Origin: Chloroflexota bacterium
Lineage (GTDB): Bacteria; Chloroflexota; UBA6077; JACCZL01
Reading direction: 5' to 3'
NCBI GenBank assembly: GCA_020850535.1
Contig: JADZEM010000187.1
Span: 151,840 to 215,839, forward strand
Length of the DNA stretch: 64,000 nt
Made by a program: the position numbers and the translations under genes. Shown piece by piece: positions 7,910 through 27,154 of this stretch (within the stretch, counting starts at the first letter, position 1; every line of letters begins with the position of its first letter). The notes under the pieces are model-generated. The model worked only from the letters and a program-made list of their open reading frames with translations, did not search any database and was not told the origin of the DNA.

Positions 7910-8335
7910 GCCAGATCCCTCACTCCGTCGCGTGCATCGCGCTCAGCTGGGTCTGGGCCGGCGCAACGCCGATGGACGGGCAACGCTGCCTCCATCAACA
8001 TTATCGGCACGTCTTCCAAAAAGCTGAGGCTGAACATCCCTGTCCTCGGCGCTTCGGGGCCGTCCTGGGAGTGTGCATCCACTCCACGGGGCCGCGCATG
8101 CCAGCGCCTGCTGTTCGTCTGGCGTAGGCTAACACGGCCGGGGTGCGAACACAACGCGGTTGGCACACACCCCGAGCGTACGCGTGGCAACAGTATCCGG
8201 CGCATCGCAATGACACACTGATATGCAGTCGTCACGGTCTCTTTACATTCTGTTCACAAGAAACGCGGATACTCCCCACAGGCCTGCGGCCCCGGCCAGG
8301 GTTGGTCCGGTGGACATGCCTGCGTAGGACGGTAG

Positions 8336-9508
8336 ATGCGTTCAGCCCGATGGATTGTCGCGGCATCCTCGGTGGCCCTCAGCCTGGTACTCGCGGAGCT
8401 GCTGGTGCGAGTGGTCGCGCCGGTCAGCGAATCGCGGTTGCTCCCCTTTACATATAACGACGAGCGGGTACACCAGATCATCCGTGGTGACACGTACCTG
8501 ACCTACGATGCTGACCTCGGCTGGAACCTGACGCCGAGCCGCACCCGCCGCTCGGAAGGCAACGTCTACCGCATCAACAGCCAGAGCATCCGCGCCGACC
8601 ACGACTACCAGCTTGACGAAGCGCCGGGCGTCCAGCGGATCACCGCCTTCGGCGACTCGTTCACCCACTGCAGCGAGTCCACCCAGCAAGACTGCTGGAC
8701 CGTGCTGCTGGAAGACGCCCTGCCACGGGCCGAGGTGCTCAACTTCGGCGTACCGGGCTACGGCCCCGACCAGGCGCTGCTGCGCTACGGCCGCGACGGA
8801 CAGAAGTTCGGCGGCTGCGCCGTGATCATCGGGTACTTCGTGGGCGACATCGAGCGCGTCGTCAATCGCTTCAGGCCGTTCATTCACCCTGACGACAGCG
8901 TCGTCTTGAGCAAGCCGCGCTACGTGCTGAACGGTTCTGATCTGGTGCTGATGCCCAACCCGGTGACCGACCTCGATCAGCTCCTGGATGTCCACTGGGT
9001 CGAATCGACACTCGGACAGCACGACTCCTGGTACTTCCCGAACACCTTCACGGCCGGCCCGTTGGACTCCTCCCACCTGGTACGACTGGGGCGGACGGCC
9101 GCCTACACCTGGCATCGACAGCCGCTCCTGCGGACCGAGCGCGGATTCCCGCTCTACGACCAGCAGGGGGAGGCCTATCAGCTGACGCAGCGCATCCTCC
9201 TGAAATTCGTGGACGATGTCCGCGCGAACGGCGCGACCCCGGTGGTCGTCGTGATGCCGGGCATGCTCGACCTGGCGCAGAACGCCACAGGCGTGAAGAC
9301 GTATGCTCCGCTCCTGGAACTGCTCAGCGAGGCCGGCGCGCCGGTCGTCGACGTGACCTCCGAGCTGCTGGTCGAGGTCGAGCGCCACGGCCTCGACGAT
9401 GTCTTCGAGGATACGCACTATTCCCGGCTGGGGAACGCTGCCGTCGCGCAGAAACTCGCGGAGACGTTGCCGCGTCTCACACAGCCGACCTGTGGCCCGG
9501 CACGGTAG
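8336..9508 (+). CDS. SGNH/GDSL hydrolase-family protein with N-terminal signal/TM segment
   Basis: Hydrophobic N-terminus; block I FGDSFT and block V DTHYS (DxxH) of SGNH hydrolases; good coding GC3. Confidence 0.5.
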   Translation: MRSARWIVAASSVALSLVLAELLVRVVAPVSESRLLPFTYNDERVHQIIRGDTYLTYDADLGWNLTPSRTRRSEGNVYRINSQSIRADHDYQLDEAPGVQRITAFGDSFTHCSESTQQDCWTVLLEDALPRAEVLNFGVPGYGPDQALLRYGRDGQKFGGCAVIIGYFVGDIERVVNRFRPFIHPDDSVVLSKPRYVLNGSDLVLMPNPVTDLDQLLDVHWVESTLGQHDSWYFPNTFTAGPLDSSHLVRLGRTAAYTWHRQPLLRTERGFPLYDQQGEAYQLTQRILLKFVDDVRANGATPVVVVMPGMLDLAQNATGVKTYAPLLELLSEAGAPVVDVTSELLVEVERHGLDDVFEDTHYSRLGNAAVAQKLAETLPRLTQPTCGPAR

Positions 9509-9625
9509 CCACCAACGCCCTCTGGTCCCTGCTGCCGCCCCCTGCTGTGACTCAGGTTGATCTTCGAGGCCCGGCGGTTGATACTCCCGACGCGCGCCAT
9601 GACGGCGCCACCAGGGAGGAACCCG

Positions 9626-10048
9626 ATGCCGGCTCGAACCTTTGACTGGCGCGACGATCCGACCGGAACCGTGATCGCCGTGCCAGACGTGCGCGCACGC
9701 TTCCTCAAGCGCAACCCGGACGACGCACTCGGCGGCTTCCACAGCCACGAGGAGTCGAATGGCATCGAGACGTGGGTGGTCCTCGAAGGCAAGGTTCGCT
9801 TCGAGTTCGACGACGGCGAGGTCATCGCCACGCCGGGCCAGTCTGTGGTGGCCTACCCACACGAGAAGCACCGTGTCTCCTGCGCCGGCGATGAGCCCTG
9901 CGTCTACTTCCTGACGCTGACGCCGCACCGCGAGCCGACGCACACCTTCTACGACGACAACGGCAACCGTCTCCCGTCACGCGTCGGGACGGTCAACACG
10001 ACGTGGTGCGGCGAGCCGTCGCTGGGCGAGCTGCCCACGAAGGTCTAG
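9626..10048 (+). CDS. cupin domain protein
   Basis: Conserved cupin barrel motif (GFHSHEE...G...VVLEGKVRFEFDDGEV...AYPHEKH). Start chosen at ATG 9626, preceded by AGGGAGGAA; earlier ATGs at 9557 and 9599 lack an SD. Confidence 0.6.
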   Translation: MPARTFDWRDDPTGTVIAVPDVRARFLKRNPDDALGGFHSHEESNGIETWVVLEGKVRFEFDDGEVIATPGQSVVAYPHEKHRVSCAGDEPCVYFLTLTPHREPTHTFYDDNGNRLPSRVGTVNTTWCGEPSLGELPTKV

Positions 10049-15591: not shown

Positions 15592-16506
15592 ATGAGCGCC
15601 ACCGTCGTCCTCGATCCCAGGCTCGCAGACCTGGTTGACCCATCGGCCACACCCGAGCAGATCGCCAGCGGCTGTGTCTTCACCGAGGGACCGCTCTGGA
15701 GCCACCGCGACCAGTGGCTGACCTTCAGCGACGTACGCGGCAACACGATGTACCGCTGGACCGAGTCGGGCGGCCAACAGGTCTTCCGGAAGCCGAGTCA
15801 GGTCGCGAACGGGAACACCTACGATCTCGGGCACAACATCGTCACCTGCGAGCACCAGGGCCGGCGCGTGTCGCGGACGTCCCCCGATGGCCGCATCGAG
15901 ACGGTCGTGGACCGCTACGACGGCAAGCGGCTGAACAGCCCCAACGACGTGATCTGCCTCGCGAACGGCGACCTGATCTTCACCGATCCGCCGTACGGCC
16001 TGCGTCAGCCGGACGGGACGTTCGCACCCGGCGAGACGCCATTCAACGGCGTCTATCGGGTGTCGGCGTCGGACGGCAGCATCCGGCTGCTGGTGGACGA
16101 CTTCGAGCGCCCGAACGGCCTCGTCCTCAGGGACGACGGCCGCACGCTGTTGATCGACGACACGGACCGCCACCACGTCCGCGCGTTCGACGTGAACGAC
16201 GACGGCAGCCTGAGCAACGATCGGGTCTTCGCGGAAGTCACCTACGGCAGCACGGTCGGCCGGCCGGACGGCATGAAGCTGGACGTGCTCGGCAACCTCT
16301 ACGTGACGGCGAACACGGAGGACGGCCTGTGGGTCTACGCGCCAGACGGCGCTCCGCTCGGGTTCATCGGCACGCCCGAGCCGCCGGCTAACTGCGCCTG
16401 GGGCGGCCCTGGGAATCGGATGCTGTTCATCACGGCGAACACCGGCGTCTACCGTCTGACCATGAAGGTGTCAGGTCAGGCGATCCACGCCAACCAGCCG
16501 GCGTAG
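15592..16506 (+). CDS. SMP-30/gluconolactonase/LRE family protein
   Basis: Six-bladed propeller lactonase motifs (EGPLW, NSPND, FTDPPYG, PNGL). ATG 15592 preceded by CAGGAGG; the upstream part of the track ORF is rejected. Confidence 0.8.
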   Translation: MSATVVLDPRLADLVDPSATPEQIASGCVFTEGPLWSHRDQWLTFSDVRGNTMYRWTESGGQQVFRKPSQVANGNTYDLGHNIVTCEHQGRRVSRTSPDGRIETVVDRYDGKRLNSPNDVICLANGDLIFTDPPYGLRQPDGTFAPGETPFNGVYRVSASDGSIRLLVDDFERPNGLVLRDDGRTLLIDDTDRHHVRAFDVNDDGSLSNDRVFAEVTYGSTVGRPDGMKLDVLGNLYVTANTEDGLWVYAPDGAPLGFIGTPEPPANCAWGGPGNRMLFITANTGVYRLTMKVSGQAIHANQPA

Positions 16507-16639
16507 ACGGTCCTCACGGCTTCCCAGTCCGCCACACAGAGCAGAACTTCGCCACGCTCCCCCGTACTCTGCTCGTCATTTCGGCCGCGACGCGCAATGA
16601 ACATCCCCGCCCTGACAACCGCAGTGCAGCGCGAAACAA

Positions 16640-16806
16640 CCATCCCAAGGTTGTCCCGACCGAAACGAGGGATGAACTTCCCTCCGTCATCCCGACCGTA
16701 GCGAGGAACGAGCGAAGCGGAGGGATCTTCTCCCTCTGTCCGGCACATTTCAGGCAGGGAAGATCCCTCGACTTCGTTCGCAGGCTCACTTCGCTCGGGC
16801 TGACCC
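16640..16806. repeat. imperfect-palindromic intergenic repeat element, family copy B (plus a partial extra arm at 16651-16685)
   Basis: gtcatcccgaccgtagcgaggaacgagcgaagcggagggatcttc ... gaagatccctcgacttcgttcgcaggctcacttcgctcgggctgac. The right half is about 85% identical to copy A. Confidence 0.7.
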
Positions 16807-16822
16807 GGTTCAGCGCACGTGC

Positions 16823-17095
16823 GTGTCGACGCCTCGCTACGACACGCCGTATCGTGAACGCATGGACTCGCTGCCCTCGCGCATCACCATCGATTCGAAC
16901 ATCTGCCACGGCAAGCCGGTGATTCGCGGTCTGCGCTATCCCGTGCAGTCGATGCTGGAGTGCCTAGCTGGCGGCGACTCCATCGAGGACATTGTGGCCG
17001 CGTTCCCTGACCTGAAGCGCGGCGATCTCCTCACCTGCCTGGAGTTCGCGGCGCGCTCGCTTGAGGTCAAGCGCTCGCACCTGACGGCGGCGTGA
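16823..17095 (+). CDS. DUF433 domain protein (antitoxin-like partner of DUF5615 PIN-like toxins)
   Basis: ITIDSNICHGKPVIRGLRYPV...AGGDSIEDIVAAFPDLKRGDLLTCLEFAA matches the DUF433 consensus. The true start may be the internal ATG at 16862. Confidence 0.7.
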   Translation: MSTPRYDTPYRERMDSLPSRITIDSNICHGKPVIRGLRYPVQSMLECLAGGDSIEDIVAAFPDLKRGDLLTCLEFAARSLEVKRSHLTAA

Positions 17096-17190
17096 AGTTC
17101 ATGATCGATGCCCGGCATCCCCAAGAAGGAAATACCCAGAGCGATTTCGGATTGACGGCCCGCCGCCACGCCCGTATACTCCCCCACTAG
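17092..17190 (+). pseudogene. degenerate remnant of a DUF5615-type toxin gene (32 codons)
   Basis: GTG overlaps the DUF433 stop (GTGA), as in intact DUF433/DUF5615 pairs. Translation VKFMIDARHPQ... resembles the MKxLxDENLP N-terminus of DUF5615, then diverges and stops at 17190. Confidence 0.3.
17152..17180 (+). promoter_or_regulatory. sigma-70-like promoter (TTGACG-17 nt-TATACT) driving the T-box leader and trpS-trp operon
   Basis: TTGACG at 17152-17157 and TATACT at 17175-17180 with a 17-nt spacer. Located inside the decayed toxin remnant, about 440 nt upstream of trpS. Confidence 0.5.
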
Positions 17191-17545
17191 ACACAACCGC
17201 ATACTCAAAGACTGCGAACGGGACGAGTACCCGTCAGCGAGCGCCTCAGAGAGCCGGGGTTGGTGTGAACCGGTGGCGCAGACGGCGGCGAATGGACCCG
17301 GGAGTCGCGATCCGAACGCGCAGGACGGTCACCCGCTGACCGACAGGCACCAAGTAGGCATCGCCGGAGTTGCCACCGTTATCAGGGTGTAGGGCATCGC
17401 CGTGAGGCCGGCAGCAGCACGCTGCAAGGTTCAGGGCCGCGCCCGCGAAGGGCTTGTCACGCAGTCCCCTGCACGACGGCCGAAACAGGGTGGCACCACG
17501 AGACGCCCCTCGTCCCTGGCTGGACGAGGGGCGTTTGCCGTTCAC
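17187..17545 (+). promoter_or_regulatory. T-box riboswitch leader (probable Trp specifier UGG) with intrinsic terminator
   Basis: T-box consensus AGGGUGGcACCaCG at 17487-17500. Immediately followed by a perfect 12-bp terminator stem (cgcccctcgtcc/ggacgaggggcg, 17504-17533) and UUUGCCGUU. A stem I-like AGAGA motif lies near 17255 and a candidate specifier gaaUGGa at 17293-17295. An aminoacyl-tRNA synthetase gene follows. Confidence 0.55.
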
Positions 17546-17619
17546 ACAGGATCTCGCTCTGCCTCCCTCTCCGCCCCGGAGATCGGAACACGGCGAGGTC
17601 AGCGGAGGGGTGCTACCAG

Positions 17620-18671
17620 ATGACCGCAGGTTCTCAGGCCAAGAAGGGCCGCATTCTCACTGGCGACCGGCCCACCGGCAAGCTCCACCTGGGGCACTAC
17701 GTCGGCTCGCTCGCCAACCGCGTCAAGCTCCAGGACACCTACGACTGCTACTTCATCGTCGCCGACTACCACGCGCTGACCACCCGCTTCGACAACCCCC
17801 GCGACATCGGCGAGAACGTCCATGAGCTGGTGCTCGACTACCTGAGCGTCGGCATGGACCCCGACAAGAGCGTCATCTACCTGCAGTCGCTCGTCCCCGA
17901 GACCTGCGAGCTCCACTTGCTGTTCAGCATGCTCGTCTCGGTGCCGAGGCTGGAGCGCCTTCCCACGCTCAAGGACGTCGTGCGCGATCTCAAGCTGGAG
18001 ACGGCCTCGTACGGGCTGCTCGGCTACCCGGTGCTCCAAAGTGCTGACATCCTGATCGTGCGGGGCAACCTCGTGCCGGTCGGCAAGGACCAGTCGTCGC
18101 ACATCGAGATCACCCGCGAGATCGGTCGCCGCTTCAACGACCTCTACGGCGAAGTCTTCCCCATCGCCGAGGCGCTCATCGGCGACGTGCCCACCCTCGT
18201 CGGGATCGATGGCAAGGCCAAGATGAGCAAGAGCCTCAACAATGCCATCATGCTGGCCGACTCGCCCGAGGAGGTCAAGCGCAAGGTCATGGGGATGTAC
18301 ACCGACCCGACCCGCCTGCGCGCCACCGATCCGGGGACGGTCGAGGGCAACCCCGTCTTCCAGTACCACGACGCCTTCAACCCGAACCTGGACGAGGTCA
18401 ACGACCTGAAGGACCGCTACCGCGTCGGGAAGGTCGGCGACGTCGAGGTCAAGCGCAAGCTGATCGCCGCCCTGGAGAACTTCCTCGAGCCGATCCGCGA
18501 GCGCCGCGCCAAGGTCGAGAGCCAGCCCGGCCTGGTGGACGACGTCATCGCCGAGGGCAGCCGCAAGGCTCGCCGCGAGGCCGAGGAGACGATCCGCATG
18601 GCCCGAGACGCCATGGGCATCAACTACTTCGCCAGCGAGCGGCCGGACATGGCCGGATCACGGAGGGGCTG

Positions 18672-18672
<1 letters not shown>
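17620..18672 (+). CDS. trpS: tryptophan--tRNA ligase
   Basis: Class I aaRS HIGH-like (GKLHLGHYVG) and KMSKS motifs with the TrpS-specific layout. Confidence 0.9.
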
Positions 18673-20860
<2,188 letters not shown>

Positions 20861-20864
20861 GGCG

Positions 20865-21896
20865 ATGGCGATCAAGGAGATGATCGTCAAGGTGGTGGAA
20901 GGCCGGTCCCTCCGCGAGACCGAGGCCGCTGCCGCCATGCTCGACATCGTGGAGGGGCTGGCGACGCCCTCGCAGATCGCGGCGTTCGTGACGGCGCTCC
21001 GCATGAAGGGGGAGACCGCCGAGGAGATCGCCGGGCTCGCGCGGATCATGCGCCGCTACGCCAACCGCGTCGAGGCCGACTCAGACGCCATCGACATCGT
21101 CGGGACCGGCGGCGACGGCGGCAACACGTTCAACATCTCGACCCTCTCGGCCATCGTGGTGGCGGCGGCCGGCGGGAAGGTCGCCAAGCACGGCAACCGT
21201 GGCATCACCAGCAAGTGCGGCGCGGCGGACATCCTCGAAGCGCTCGGGGTGGCGTTCGATCTGCCGCCAGACGGCGTCGCCGAGTGCGTGCGCCGGACCG
21301 GCTTCGGCTTCATGTTCGCGCCGCTGTACCATCCGGCCATGCGTCACGCCGTGGTGCCGCGCCGCGAGATCGGCGTGCGGACGGCGTTCAACCTGCTCGG
21401 CCCGATCACCAACCCGGCCGGCGTCACGTCCCAGGTGACGGGCGTGGCCGTTGGCCCGGTCGCGCCGATCATCGCCGAGGTGCTGCGGCTGCTCGGGTCG
21501 CGGCGGGCGCTGGTCGTCCACGGCAGCGACGGCCTGGACGAGCTGTCGATCTCGGCGCCGACGAAGGTCTACGACGTGGCCGATGGCGTCGTCAGCGACT
21601 ACGAGATCACCCCCGAGCGGATCGGGTTGCAGTCGCACCCGAGCGAGGCGATCCGGGGCGGCACCGTCGAGGCGAACCTGCGCTACGCCCAGTCGATCCT
21701 GGCCGGCGAGCGCGGGGCGGCCCGCGACGCCGTCCTGCTGAACGCCGCCGCCGGCATGGTGGTGGCCGGCCTCTCGGAGGACATGCGGCGCGGGGCGCTG
21801 CGAGCGGCCGAGGCCATCGACAGCGGCGCGGCCAGGGCCAAGCTCGACGAGGTGCGCGAGGTCTCGCAGTCGCTGAAGGGGGCGGTGCCAGCCTGA
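20865..21896 (+). CDS. trpD: anthranilate phosphoribosyltransferase
   Basis: IVGTGGDGGNTFNIST...KHGNRG signature. Confidence 0.9.
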   Translation: MAIKEMIVKVVEGRSLRETEAAAAMLDIVEGLATPSQIAAFVTALRMKGETAEEIAGLARIMRRYANRVEADSDAIDIVGTGGDGGNTFNISTLSAIVVAAAGGKVAKHGNRGITSKCGAADILEALGVAFDLPPDGVAECVRRTGFGFMFAPLYHPAMRHAVVPRREIGVRTAFNLLGPITNPAGVTSQVTGVAVGPVAPIIAEVLRLLGSRRALVVHGSDGLDELSISAPTKVYDVADGVVSDYEITPERIGLQSHPSEAIRGGTVEANLRYAQSILAGERGAARDAVLLNAAAGMVVAGLSEDMRRGALRAAEAIDSGAARAKLDEVREVSQSLKGAVPA

Positions 21897-22699
21897 TGAT
21901 CCTCGACGACATCCTCGCCAACAAACGCAACGAGGTTGCCGAGCGGCTGGCCCGCGTCCCGCAGGCGGAGCAGGCCGCCCGGGCGGCCGCCGCCGCGCCG
22001 GCCCGCGACTTCCTGGGGGCGCTGCGCCGGCCCGGCGTCTCGATCATCTCGGAGATCAAGCGGCAGTCGCCGGCCAAGGGCGCGCTGCGGCTCGACATGG
22101 ACGCCCCGACGATGGCCCGGACCTACGCGGCGGCCGGCACATCCTGCATCTCGGTCCTCACCGACGAGAAGTACTTCAAAGGCTCGGACGCCGACCTCAC
22201 CGCCGTGCGCGAGCGGGTCACCGTCCCGGTCCTGCGCAAGGACTTTGTCGTCTCGCCGTACCAGGTCTACGAGGCGCGGGCCATCGGCGCAGACTGCGTG
22301 CTCTTGATCGTCCTGGCGCTCACCCCCGACGAGATCGTCAGCACGAGCGCGCTGGCAACGTCGCTCGGGATGGCCGCGCTGGTGGAGGTCCACACCGAGG
22401 ACGAGTTGCGGATCGCCCTGGACTGCGGCTCGGAGCTGATCGGCATCAACAACCGCGATCTGACCCGCATGGTCACCGACGTAGCGACCACCGCGAAGCT
22501 GCGACCGCTGGTCCCGGCCGGCGTCACCCTCGTCAGCGAGAGTGGCATCCGGACCGCCGAGGACATCGCCATGCTGCGCGATCTCGGCGTTGATGCCGCC
22601 CTGATCGGCGAGTCGCTGGTCACGGCCCCGGACGCTGGCGACCTGCTGCGGAGCTTTCTGGCAGCCGGCGCACCGCTTCCCACCCGGACGCCCGCATGA
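21896..22699 (+). CDS. trpC: indole-3-glycerol phosphate synthase
   Basis: ISEIKRQSPAKG...ISVLTDEKYFKGS motifs. The ATG overlaps the trpD stop; the long N-terminal extension in the track ORF is rejected. Confidence 0.85.
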   Translation: MILDDILANKRNEVAERLARVPQAEQAARAAAAAPARDFLGALRRPGVSIISEIKRQSPAKGALRLDMDAPTMARTYAAAGTSCISVLTDEKYFKGSDADLTAVRERVTVPVLRKDFVVSPYQVYEARAIGADCVLLIVLALTPDEIVSTSALATSLGMAALVEVHTEDELRIALDCGSELIGINNRDLTRMVTDVATTAKLRPLVPAGVTLVSESGIRTAEDIAMLRDLGVDAALIGESLVTAPDAGDLLRSFLAAGAPLPTRTPA

Positions 22700-23323
22700 G
22701 CCGGACCCGCGTCAAGATCTGCGGCATCAAGACGGTCGAGCAGGCCGCCATGGCGCTGGAGGCTGGAGCCGACTTCCTCGGCTTCATTTTCTACCCGCCG
22801 AGCCATCGGTACGTCGCGCCGCGGACGGTGGGGGAGATCGTGGCGGCGGCGCGGTCGCGCTTCGGCGGGCCAGACCGCTGGCAGGCGGTCGGCGTCTTCG
22901 TCGACGAGCCGCTGGAGGTCGTCCAGTCAACCGTGCGAACGGCCGGGCTGGACTTCGCGCAGTTGTGCGGAGCAGAAGTTGCCGCCTACGCGGCTGCCGT
23001 CGGCTCACCGGTGATCCGCGTGGTGCACGTCGATGGCAGCGGCCAGCCGCAAGCCTCGACCGTCGCCGCCGACCACGGGGCTGCCCGCCTGCTGCTCGAC
23101 GCCAAGGCCGACGGCCAGTACGGCGGCACCGGCACGACCTATCCCTGGCCGGCCGTACGAGCCGCCGCCGCCGAGGCGTTCCTGGCCGGCGGCCTGACGC
23201 CCGGCAACGTGGCCGAGGCGATCGAGGCGACGCGCCCCTGGGCCGTGGACGTCAGCAGCGGCGTGGAGTCGTGCCGGGTGAAAGACCCGGACCTGATTCG
23301 CGCGTTCATCTCGGAGGTCAGAC

Positions 23324-24552
<1,229 letters not shown>

Positions 24553-24556
<4 letters not shown>

Positions 24557-25374
24557 GCGCCCAGAATCGGATCGACCGGGCCTTTGCCGGCCTCAAGCAG
24601 GAGGGGCGCATCGGGCTGTTCCCCTACCTGACGGCCGGCTACCCGGACCGGGCCGCCTGCGTGCGGCTGCTGCGGGTCATGGCCGACGCCGGCGCGGACG
24701 CGTTCGAGCTTGGCATCCCGTTCTCGGACCCGCTGGCCGACGGCGTCACGATGCAGATCACCAGCGCGAAGTCGCTGGCGCAGGGGACCACCCTGGCGGA
24801 CGCCTTCGACATCGTGGCCGAGTTCCGGCAGACGCACGACACGCCCATTGTGATGATGAGTTACGTCAATCCATTGATGGCCTACGGCTTCGAACGGCTC
24901 TGTGCGGACGCCGCGCGCATCGGCGTGGACGGATTCATCGTCCCCGATATGCCGCTGGAGGAGGCCGCCGAGCTGGCCGACGCCGCCCGGCAGCACGGCC
25001 TGCACTACGTCTACTTCCTGGCCCCGACCAGCGACGCCGGCCGGATCGAGGCGGTCGGCGGGCAGTCGAGCGGCTTCATCTACTGCGTGGCGCTCGTCGG
25101 CACCACCGGCGCTCGCTCGGAGCTGTCGGCGGAGCTGCCCGACTTCCTGGCTCGCGCCCGCGCCGCGACTGCGACGCCGCTGGTGGTCGGCTTCGGCATC
25201 TCGACGCCGGCCCACGTCGCGCGGCTGGTCGGGATGGCGGACGGGGCCATCGTGTCGAGCGCCATCGCCAACCTGATCGAAGCCACGCCACCCGAGCAGG
25301 TTGAGGCTGCCGTCGACGAATTCGTGCGCCAGCTGCGGGCCGCCACGGCCGGCACGACGGCGGCCACACGTTGA
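24553..25374 (+). CDS. trpA: tryptophan synthase alpha chain
   Basis: TrpA signature [11 protein letters not shown] / [13 protein letters not shown]. Confidence 0.9.
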
Positions 25375-25423
25375 CTCGCACCTGCGAGGAGGCCCTCACG
25401 CCCAGGCCGGCGAGTGCAAGACG

Positions 25424-26215
25424 GTGACCGTCAGCCGCCGACCGGCCCCGCCCGTCCTCCAGCTCGGCGAGTTCTCCGGGCCGCTCGACCTGCTGCTGAC
25501 GCTGGTCGAGCGGCGGCGGCTGCCCATCGCCGAGCTGAGCCTGGTGGCCGTCGCGGATCAGTATCTCGCGCAGGTGCGCTCGCTCAACGAGGTCGACCCG
25601 GACCTGCTCTCGGAGTTCCTGGCGATTGCCGCCCGCCTGCTCCTGCTAAAGTCGCGGTCGCTGCTGCCGGCCATCGAGCCGCCGGCCCCGCCCGAGCTGG
25701 CCGAGGAGACAGACGGCGCGGAGCTGGTGCGTCGGCTGGAGGCATACCGCTCGTTCAGGGCGCTGGCCGAGGCGCTCGGACGGCTCGACGCAGCCGGCCT
25801 CTCGTCGTACGGGCACGGCGCACACAAGCTTGATCTGCCGCCGGAGTCAGTCGCACTCCAGGCGATTGCCCCAGAGATTCTCCGCTCGCTCTACCTCGCC
25901 ATCGAGAAGCGGCGCAATCCCGGCACGGCTGACGAGGAGACCATCCGCCCGCGTATCAGCGTGGCCGAGCGGCTGTTCCTGCTGCGCGGCCTGCTCACCA
26001 CCGAGAAGCGCATCAACTGGCAGGCCGTCTGCGGCGAGACGGTTGACGAGATCGTGGCGACGCTGCTGGCGGTGCTGGAGCTGGTCCGGCGCGGCGAGAT
26101 AGTGATCGTACAGTCAGCCCTGTTCGGGCCGATCACGCTCGAAGCCGGCGACCAGCCGTCGATACCGGTCGGGGACGACGCTCTCCCCAGCGAGTCCGAG
26201 CTCGCGGGTCAGTAG
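25424..26215 (+). CDS. scpA: segregation and condensation protein A
   Basis: GEFSGPLDLLLTLVERRRL and EFLAIAARLLLLKSRSLLP kleisin ScpA motifs. Start codon uncertain: GTG 25424 chosen, because the ATG at 25301 overlaps trpA by 74 nt. Confidence 0.7.
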   Translation: MTVSRRPAPPVLQLGEFSGPLDLLLTLVERRRLPIAELSLVAVADQYLAQVRSLNEVDPDLLSEFLAIAARLLLLKSRSLLPAIEPPAPPELAEETDGAELVRRLEAYRSFRALAEALGRLDAAGLSSYGHGAHKLDLPPESVALQAIAPEILRSLYLAIEKRRNPGTADEETIRPRISVAERLFLLRGLLTTEKRINWQAVCGETVDEIVATLLAVLELVRRGEIVIVQSALFGPITLEAGDQPSIPVGDDALPSESELAGQ

Positions 26216-27154
26216 GGTGTCATGCTCCTGGCGTAGGGCGCGAACGGCGCTCGGGCGCGCGCCATCGATGGCCGCCTGCCGTTCCCGCGCGAGAAACGTG
26301 CGGATGCGGTCGCATCCATACGCATCGCGGAGCATCTTCGGCGTCACCTTGCCGCTCGGTCGCACGCTCGCCTTTCGACCGCACGTCTCCACGATGAAGT
26401 CAACGCCGCGCGCACTCACGCCGAAGACGGCCTCACGACCGGCCACGCTGGCGTCGGCAAGCTGCTCGCGAAGGGCGGCGGCCAGCCGCACGGTCAGGGC
26501 CAGCGTCCGCTGCCGCACGCGCCCGGTTTGCCGCCGATGCCGGATATGCAGCCGTCCTGGGGACTCCACACCGTCCACAAACTCGACATCCTCGCAGCGG
26601 AGGGCCACGGCCTCGTCGCGCTTGAGGCCGGCGTCGATCAGGCACAGTACCAGCGCCTGCCAACTCGCCGTGTGGGCCGCCGCCACCACCTGCTCGACCT
26701 CCGCGGGCGTCAGCACCGACAGCTCGGGCGCGACGAAGCTCGGATACAGCAGCTCGGCTGACGGGTCGTGCTCCAGGTCGCCGGCGGCGTGCAACTGCCG
26801 AAAGAAGCCCTTGACGGTCGCCGTCTTCCGCCGCAAGGACGACGTGCTGTTCCCCTGCTGCCGCCCGAGCCACGCGAAGAAGCCGCGCAGATCGTCGGCG
26901 GTCACGCTGCCCAGCGTCAGCCGCCCGAGATACCGCGCCAGCTGCTGGAGATCGAGGCGGGTGCTGGCGACGGTATGCGCCGTCTTGCCGGCCTCGGTCA
27001 GGCTGTCAAGATAGGTTGTCAGAGCGTCGTGCAACGTCCACCGCGCAAGAGCGTACCTGGGAACAGCGCCTGCATCCCTTGCGTCCCTCCCATCATTCCG
27101 AGCGGAGTGGGCCTGCGAACGCAGTCGAGGGATCTTCCCCTTCGATTCGCTCAT
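26114..27154 (-). CDS. divergent tyrosine-recombinase/phage-integrase family protein (SAM-like core-binding domain plus degenerate catalytic domain)
   Basis: N-terminal LHDALTTYLDSL...FFAWL integrase SAM-like domain and a downstream Arg-containing catalytic-domain pattern. The canonical HxxR/H/Y spacing is not conserved (KMLRD...H...Y). The ATG at 27154 lies inside repeat copy C, and the 3' end overlaps scpA by about 100 nt. Confidence 0.5.
   Translation of the reverse strand: MSESKGKIPRLRSQAHSARNDGRDARDAGAVPRYALARWTLHDALTTYLDSLTEAGKTAHTVASTRLDLQQLARYLGRLTLGSVTADDLRGFFAWLGRQQGNSTSSLRRKTATVKGFFRQLHAAGDLEHDPSAELLYPSFVAPELSVLTPAEVEQVVAAAHTASWQALVLCLIDAGLKRDEAVALRCEDVEFVDGVESPGRLHIRHRRQTGRVRQRTLALTVRLAAALREQLADASVAGREAVFGVSARGVDFIVETCGRKASVRPSGKVTPKMLRDAYGCDRIRTFLARERQAAIDGARPSAVRALRQEHDTLLTRELGLAGESVVPDRYRRLVAGFERDRPEQG

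Follow-up and report, generated by a model that had tools for sequence, protein, structure and literature searches.

Introduction

T-box riboswitches specific for tryptophan (Trp) have long been known both on trpS, which encodes tryptophan--tRNA ligase, and on trp operons. Here we describe a leader of this kind in a 64,000-nt stretch from an uncultured Chloroflexota bacterium (GenBank assembly GCA_020850535.1, contig JADZEM010000187.1, positions 151,840 to 215,839 of the forward strand). This whole stretch is referred to as the window, and all positions are given in its coordinates. As judged from the sequence, positions 17205-17534 very probably constitute a class I, transcriptional tRNA-Trp T-box riboswitch that governs a fused trpS-trpEGDCFBA operon. 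The RNA switch itself is of a well-known kind; what is mildly new is the gene combination (trpS plus seven trp genes) and its spread across the Chloroflexota.

RegPrecise records Trp T-boxes on trpS in Herpetosiphon aurantiacus and on trpB in Chloroflexus and Roseiflexus, and for Firmicutes it gives 'trpS; trpEGDCFBA' as separate units (PMC3766115 Additional file 2). The window leader shares with the trpS T-boxes of Firmicutes and H. aurantiacus the RNA family, the UGG specifier, the UGG(C/U) bulge, the terminator/antiterminator logic and the placing of trpS first. It differs from them in that trpS is fused to the full trpEGDCFBA set and in the long insertions within Stem II and before Stem III. 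A tRNA-Trp T-box also stands over trpEGDCFBA in Lactococcus lactis, Lactobacillus plantarum, clostridia and the B. cereus group (PMC2494555; PMC3766115), and T-box control of trp biosynthesis is already known within the Chloroflexi, from the trpE and trpB-like T-boxes that Wels 2008 reported in Dehalococcoides (PMC2494555; see also PMC3766115). Those systems are recorded with trpS and trp in different T-box units, and many of the trpE leaders in Firmicutes carry T-boxes in tandem, whereas the window has a single T-box and one fused operon.

Fusion of a synthetase gene to biosynthesis under one T-box has precedents in cysES (cysE-cysS) and asnA-asnS (PMC3766115 Additional file 2). The design is that proposed for the window, a single T-box serving both a synthetase and the making of its amino acid. 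Those cases concern other amino acids and a single biosynthetic gene, whereas the window has a seven-gene pathway and the position of trpS varies among Chloroflexota. A functional parallel is the B. subtilis rtpA (anti-TRAP) T-box, through which sensing of uncharged tRNA-Trp raises trp operon expression by an indirect anti-TRAP/TRAP route (PMC10327191); control in the window would instead be direct and in cis, and no (G/U)AG array is present. We found no description of a trpS-trp operon fusion in the searchable literature, a scope that excludes key T-box reviews, and an earlier description is possible.

Results

A complete T-box leader lies upstream of trpS

Among 4227 Rfam families searched against the window, the T-box model RF00230 matches 17205-17520 over model positions 1-219 of 219. 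The match has a score of 73.8 bits, a bias term of 19.3 and an E-value of 4.4e-16 on 651 nt, or 4.3e-14 for the whole 64-kb window, and it is the sole Rfam match with E <= 0.01 in the window. The elements of the leader are as follows.

17205-17534 (+): complete T-box leader with Stem I, Stem II, IIA/B, Stem III region and antiterminator/terminator (RF00230 match)
17210-17306 (+): Stem I, with helices 17210-12/17304-06, 17219-22/17297-17300, 17231-35/17284-88, 17241-45/17275-79 and 17253-57/17270-74
17213-17217 and 17302-17303 (+): Stem I kink-turn (K-turn), with bulge 17213-15 and tandem G.A pairs 17216-17/17302-03, read from sequence
17248-17252 (+): AGAGA, the 'AG bulge' of the Stem I distal platform, aligned to the RF00230 AGAGA consensus
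17258-17269 (+): Stem I distal loop GGUUGGUGUGAA, partner of the AG bulge, aligned to the RF00230 GgUUGGUGaaA consensus
17293-17295 (+): specifier codon UGG (Trp), in the loop CGAA-UGG-A directly 5' of the closing helix (RF00230 alignment)
17307-17364 (+): Stem II, with GAA...AGUA S-turn motif and a lineage-specific distal insertion of ~30 nt (RF00230 alignment)
17365-17388 (+): Stem IIA (17365-67/17376-78), F-box CCGUUA (17376-17381) and IIB pseudoknot (loop 17372-74 with 17386-88)
17392-17482 (+): variable region, with a lineage-specific hairpin at about 17392-17444 and a putative Stem III at 17456-17477
17487-17500 (+): T-box sequence AGGGUGGCACCACG, read from sequence
17487-17517 (+): antiterminator, with A1 17487-90/17514-17, the 7-nt bulge UGGCACC 17491-97 and A2 17498-17502/17509-13
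17503-17542 (+): intrinsic-terminator-like hairpin of 13 bp (17503-15/17522-34) with loop CUGGCU, then the U-tract UUUGCCGUU

In Stem I, the RF00230 alignment locates the basal GA motif, the AGUA of the specifier loop, AGAGA, the distal loop (GGUUGGUG) and GAA-UGG-A. Further downstream it places the GAA/AGUA of Stem II, the F-box CCGUUA and AGGGUGGCACCACGAG...CUCGUCCCU.

Conservation was assessed on 163 loci gathered from genome collections, metagenome collections and contig look-ups. The genome-collection scan yielded TrpS relatives of at most 69% identity; closer ones came from metagenome contigs, and the closest, at 70-89% identity, are all from uncultured Chloroflexota. A covariance model of Stem I, built from a 10-sequence alignment, was used to search the window and all loci. 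It gave exactly one match in the window and 46 across all loci, and these 46 Stem I sequences form the alignment A3. TrpS of the window type also has relatives of 57-64% identity in assemblies labelled Spirochaetia, Saccharimonadales, Streptomyces, Micromonospora and Chlamydiae (for example L007, L013, L015, L043, L051 and L055; related loci are denoted by L numbers). The distribution of this TrpRS lineage may be wide and patchy, and some taxonomic labels of metagenome-assembled genomes (MAGs) may be unreliable.

Stem I is conserved by covariation. In the 10-sequence consensus (RNAalifold), 13 of 22 pairs show compensatory changes. In A3, 92.9% of cells are paired, compared with 64.3% in column shuffles and 32-41% in slid registers, and both sides change in 20 of 22 pairs; A3 was fitted to the covariance model and so favours structure, and the independent MAFFT/RNAalifold result agrees. 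The AG bulge is conserved across A3. Beyond Stem I, four of the seven Stem II pairs show compensatory changes among seven relatives (RNAalifold), and the F-box or a close variant is present in 44 of 46 leaders. The IIA loop and its downstream partner (IIB) are complementary over 3.57 bp on average; mismatched partners give 2.97 +/- 0.11, and none of 1000 controls reaches the observed value. The hairpin at about 17392-17444 has RNAalifold support with some compensatory pairs; the Stem III proposed at 17456-17477 comes from pairing in the single sequence.

The specifier identifies the cognate tRNA. The window reads GAA-UGG-A at 17290-17296, and its UGG codon matches the downstream trpS and trp pathway genes. 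GAA-UGG occupies the specifier position in all 46 related leaders, with a purine as the next base in 41. The alternative frames AUG and GGA were rejected, as they mismatch the downstream genes; they would also need a different discriminator partner. The Trp frame alone fits both the downstream genes and the C at the UGGN position of the antiterminator bulge, which would pair with the G discriminator reported for bacterial tRNA-Trp (PMC7778990). The window has C as this N; of the 41 relatives with an antiterminator, 39 also have C and the other two have U. TBDB reports that G discriminator for tRNA-Trp together with C or U at the matching T-box position (PMC7778990).

The leader scores below the Rfam gathering cutoff

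The curated gathering cutoff of RF00230 is 93 bits, an operational annotation threshold and not a biological feature. A default Rfam gathering scan of the window accordingly returns no match, and the T-box is seen only with E-value reporting. The low score is explained by lineage-specific insertions, of 30 nt in Stem II and 76 nt before the T-box sequence (ahead of Stem III). Nine clade relatives score 69.1-93.6 bits against the same model and just two of them (L098 and L156) reach 93; most members would therefore be missed by default Rfam annotation. The leaders of L081, L082, L085, L088, L096, L097 and L101, together with that of the window, lie at 69-87 bits.

A score below the cutoff, with a bias term of 19.3, could mean that the leader is a degenerate, non-functional remnant, or a GC-rich structure arisen by chance. 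By minimum free energy (MFE), the leader taken whole has no more than a slight edge over shuffles (z = -1.54), a measure that is uninformative for a GC-rich, multi-state RNA. The remaining evidence contradicts decay: the full-model E-value is 4e-14, all conserved motifs are intact, covariation in the 46 relatives is strong, the promoter is conserved and the specifier matches the genes in 46 of 46. We give a remnant or chance structure almost no credence.

The terminator-like hairpin and the antiterminator are mutually exclusive

The 13-bp hairpin at 17503-17534 has a predicted energy of -28.3 kcal/mol, and a 15-bp form reaches -30.7 kcal/mol. The antiterminator is far weaker (-9.0 kcal/mol). 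Fifteen nucleotides (17503-17517) are common to both, so the two helices are mutually exclusive, and the energy gap is the classical one that makes stabilisation by tRNA necessary. Of 44 relatives, 41 share the architecture of A1 (4 bp), UGGNACC bulge and A2 (at least 5 bp), and covariation is seen at the outer A1 pair (A-U in 18, G-C in 7, U-A in 7). The UGGC of the bulge would pair with the 3' GCCA of the tRNA. In 40 of 45 relatives the hairpin abuts a run of at least three U, with U5-7 in those of lower GC content.

The same 3' hairpin could in principle act on translation, as a sequestrator of the ribosome-binding site like that of class II T-boxes of the actinobacterial ileS type. The setting invites the idea: the organism is high in GC, the U-tract is degenerate, and high-GC Actinobacteria as a rule have translational T-boxes (PMC7778990). 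In some distant relatives (for example L092, L096 and L102) the hairpin ends within a few nucleotides of the start codon. In the window, by contrast, it ends at 17534, about 72 nt upstream of the trpS Shine-Dalgarno sequence GGAGGGG (at about 17606, with the ATG at 17620). As the hairpin ends some 70 nt before the Shine-Dalgarno sequence, it is unable to sequester it. In the 85-nt spacer from the hairpin to trpS, no structure is conserved and folding is on a par with shuffles (z = -0.08; the spacer coordinates of the relatives are approximate). In addition, the window has the long Stem I of class I, complete with AG bulge and distal loop, and not the shortened class II stem that lacks the distal platform; U5-7 tracts are clean in most relatives. 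Translational control is thus highly improbable and transcriptional attenuation remains the preferred mode.

The spacers of the window (17550-17600), L082, L084 and L085 each hold a GC-rich hairpin of their own, in a similar position and without sequence similarity. This is probably a composition effect, since the window hairpin is no more stable than shuffles.

Two other forms of trp attenuation were considered and rejected. A leader-peptide attenuator of the RF00513 type would carry a leader open reading frame (ORF) with tandem Trp codons; there is none, and RF00513 has no match at E <= 0.01. For TRAP-mediated attenuation, the longest chain of (G/U)AG triplets in 17181-17622 is 1, against the 9-11 triplets with 2-3-nt spacing that are expected. 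Mechanically called ORFs overlapping the leader have no Pfam matches.

These results bear on an initial annotation made from the sequence alone, which had proposed a Trp-specific T-box with a terminator/antiterminator decision domain ahead of a packed trpS-trpEGDCFBA cluster. That proposal is supported by the RF00230 match, the covariation and the specifier, and nearly all the sequence features it listed are present. The T-box sequence lies at 17487-17500 as given, and RF00230 alignment and all 46 leaders bear out the UGG specifier at 17293-17295. The terminator stem at 17504-17533 is perfect, as claimed, and extends to 13 or 15 bp. Pairing of the T-box with the 5' half of the terminator, which the annotation took to form the antiterminator, holds on evaluation of both helices. 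Its "U-rich tail" was overstated: the hairpin that shares 15 nt with the antiterminator is there, and the tail is weak (UUUGCCGUU). One assignment has to be corrected, as the AGAGA suggested as K-turn near 17255 is in fact the AG bulge at 17248-17252, the K-turn being at 17213-17217/17302-17303. The annotation had also named a covariance scan as a check and a sub-threshold score as grounds for rejection. The scan returned a significant, full-length match whose 73.8 bits fall below 93, which counts against the T-box in a formal sense only; the coverage of the full model, the 69-94 bits of relatives, the insertions and the covariation speak otherwise. A second ground that it named, a specifier loop unable to hold UGG, does not apply in any of the 46 leaders.

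The T-box heads a tightly packed trpS-trpEGDCFBA cluster

The features of the predicted transcription unit are as follows.

17152-17180 (+): sigma-70-type promoter, with -35 TTGACG 17152-17157, a 17-nt spacer and -10 TATACT 17175-17180
about 17606-12 (+): trpS Shine-Dalgarno sequence GGAGGGG
17620-18672 (+): trpS, tryptophan--tRNA ligase, 350 aa (TIGR00233, 307 bits against a cutoff of 176.75)
18672-20237 (+): trpE (NCBIfam model)
20234-20860 (+): trpG (NCBIfam model)
20865-21896 (+): trpD (NCBIfam model)
21893-22699 (+): trpC (NCBIfam model)
22696-23358 (+): trpF (NCBIfam model)
23324-24556 (+): trpB, with GTG 23324 as presumed start (NCBIfam model)
24553-25374 (+): trpA (NCBIfam model)
25424-26215 (+): scpA-like gene, 50 nt after trpA (Pfam SMC_ScpA)

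The promoter matches 10 of 12 consensus positions and is the sole promoter-like site that a consensus scan finds within 16500-26500. The pattern TTGAC[GA]-17-TATA[CG]T is kept in seven relatives in otherwise unconserved flanking sequence, and transcription would start near 17186-17189. The near-consensus promoter of the initial annotation is thus confirmed and conserved. The annotation had further advised a check for a second promoter or terminator between trpS and trpE. The same scan calls no promoter-like site in 17181-26500, non-canonical promoters inside genes being invisible to it, and terminator-like sites across the ~10 kb scanned are within chance (4 found, 2.4 +/- 1.4 expected).

The genes are closely packed. 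The trpS stop and trpE start overlap by 1 nt (TGATG), three or four further junctions are overlaps of the ATGA type, and one is a 4-nt gap. The 0-4-nt overlaps claimed for the whole series from trpS to trpA apply to most junctions; the trpF/trpB junction departs from them, since a trpB start at GTG 23324 would give a 35-nt overlap. The trpE Shine-Dalgarno sequence sits within the end of trpS. Because of the stop/start overlaps, the location of this Shine-Dalgarno sequence and the lack of other promoter-like sites, the eight genes from trpS to trpA would form a single transcript.

The scpA-like gene (chromosome segregation and condensation protein A) also follows trpA in L081 (8379-9315), with a gap of 150 nt, and in the P0011 contig, where it overlaps trpA. 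The consensus scan calls no terminator-like site between trpA and scpA, so T-box-controlled transcripts may read into scpA. The gene may be a read-through passenger, and its membership of the unit is uncertain.

Directly upstream of the promoter lies a DUF433-family gene of 90 aa (16823-17095, + strand). In L082 a PIN-domain gene with a small partner occupies the equivalent position, and the T-box locus may be flanked by small genes that resemble toxin-antitoxin pairs.

trpS occupies varied positions behind Trp T-boxes in Chloroflexota

The order T-box-trpS-trpEGDCFBA-scpA is identical in L081, an NCBI Chloroflexi MAG (GCA_020845495.1) with 82% TrpS identity, and the gene order of the P0011 contig equals that of the window. 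The start T-box-trpS-trpE is common to L082, L085, L101 and L026, and L087 has trpS-EGDCFBA with the leader off the contig. Other Chloroflexota UGG T-boxes precede trpS alone (many loci), trpE-trpS-trpGDCFBA, trpB2-trpS-trpE... or trpB2-trpE-trpS-trpG.... The order trpE-trpS-trpG... is found in L012, L046, L050, L130, L137, L146 and L158; a trpB2-like gene comes first in L075 and L066; trpS follows trpC in L093/L094 and trpA in L122. There are therefore at least five placements of trpS (first, after trpE, after a trpB2-like gene, after trpC and after trpA). Among these varied orders, loci with the leader on the contig have a UGG-specifier T-box in front, which points to more than one event of rearrangement or insertion around a common regulator. 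Shared transcription of trpS and trp genes under a Trp T-box would thus be common in the phylum, in variable gene order. That trpS inside trp operons led by a Trp T-box is a recurrent Chloroflexota design, with at least five gene orders, is a tentative generalisation that may well not hold.

Two loci depart from these patterns. In L003 (7973-9872) a complete T-box with a Trp specifier, whose Stem I spans 7973-8083 and whose T-box sequence is at about 8198, is followed immediately by an ORF for a xylose-isomerase-like TIM barrel (AP_endonuc_2, 8272-9039) and a short-chain dehydrogenase (9111-9872), and then by trpS-trpE-trpG. By its sequence, L003 would thus hold enzymes with no assigned role inside a Trp T-box unit. 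In L088 (1003-3433; 73% TrpS identity) the T-box and trpS are followed by trpD instead of trpE.

Gene order bears on whether the T-box of the window governs trpS alone, with trpEGDCFBA driven mostly by a promoter inside the cluster or under regulation of its own. Many Chloroflexota do have a T-box followed by trpS only, and non-canonical promoters within genes escape a consensus scan. Set against this are (i) the TGATG overlap, with the trpE Shine-Dalgarno sequence inside trpS; (ii) the absence of any promoter-like site from the scan of 17181-26500; (iii) the conserved adjacency of trpS and trpE in L081, L082, L085, L087, L101, L026 and the P0011 contig; and (iv) those Chloroflexota in which trpS comes after trpE and the T-box lies ahead of trpE. 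The last arrangement makes sense only with co-transcription. Control of trpS alone is improbable and we favour control of the whole cluster.

Discussion

We propose that transcription begins at the conserved promoter 17152-17180 and that Stem I of the nascent leader would dock tRNA-Trp, the CCA anticodon pairing with UGG 17293-17295 and the elbow stacking on the platform formed by AG bulge and distal loop. An uncharged tRNA would pair its 3' GCCA with UGGC 17491-17494 and stabilise the weak antiterminator 17487-17517, and RNA polymerase would then continue through trpS and trpEGDCFBA, which are coupled in translation. With a charged tRNA, the far more stable hairpin 17503-17534 would form and transcription would stop about 85 nt before trpS. 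A single sensor of uncharged tRNA-Trp would in this way co-induce the charging enzyme and the entire biosynthetic pathway. Both the efficiency of termination and the dependence of readthrough on uncharged tRNA-Trp are predictions of this model.

Several observations weigh against the proposal. The window U-tract (UUUGCCGUU) is suboptimal and a consensus terminator scan made no call; the tails of L081, L086 and L088 hold even less U. Given these degenerate U-tracts in the window and its closest high-GC relatives, termination may be inefficient or may need NusA/NusG, and termination efficiency is the main uncertainty. The leader scores below the RF00230 gathering cutoff. The IIB helix of the window is weak, consisting of two C-G pairs and a G.U wobble. 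Internal promoters within coding regions are possible and lie beyond the reach of a consensus scan. A search of the window and 40 related loci found no tRNA-Trp gene that could supply an anticodon and a discriminator from the same genomes.

The locus reveals no new mechanism. It provides an example from uncultured Chloroflexota in which one tRNA-sensing RNA would coordinate tRNA charging with amino acid synthesis. The Rfam T-box cutoff misses a clade of bona fide T-boxes with lineage-specific insertions, and this matters for riboswitch censuses of metagenomes. On a small scale, the shifting position of trpS illustrates how operons evolve around one regulator that they share. Should the cell have no TrpRS other than the operon-borne one, an essential charging enzyme and the supply of Trp would be tied into one autoregulatory transcript.

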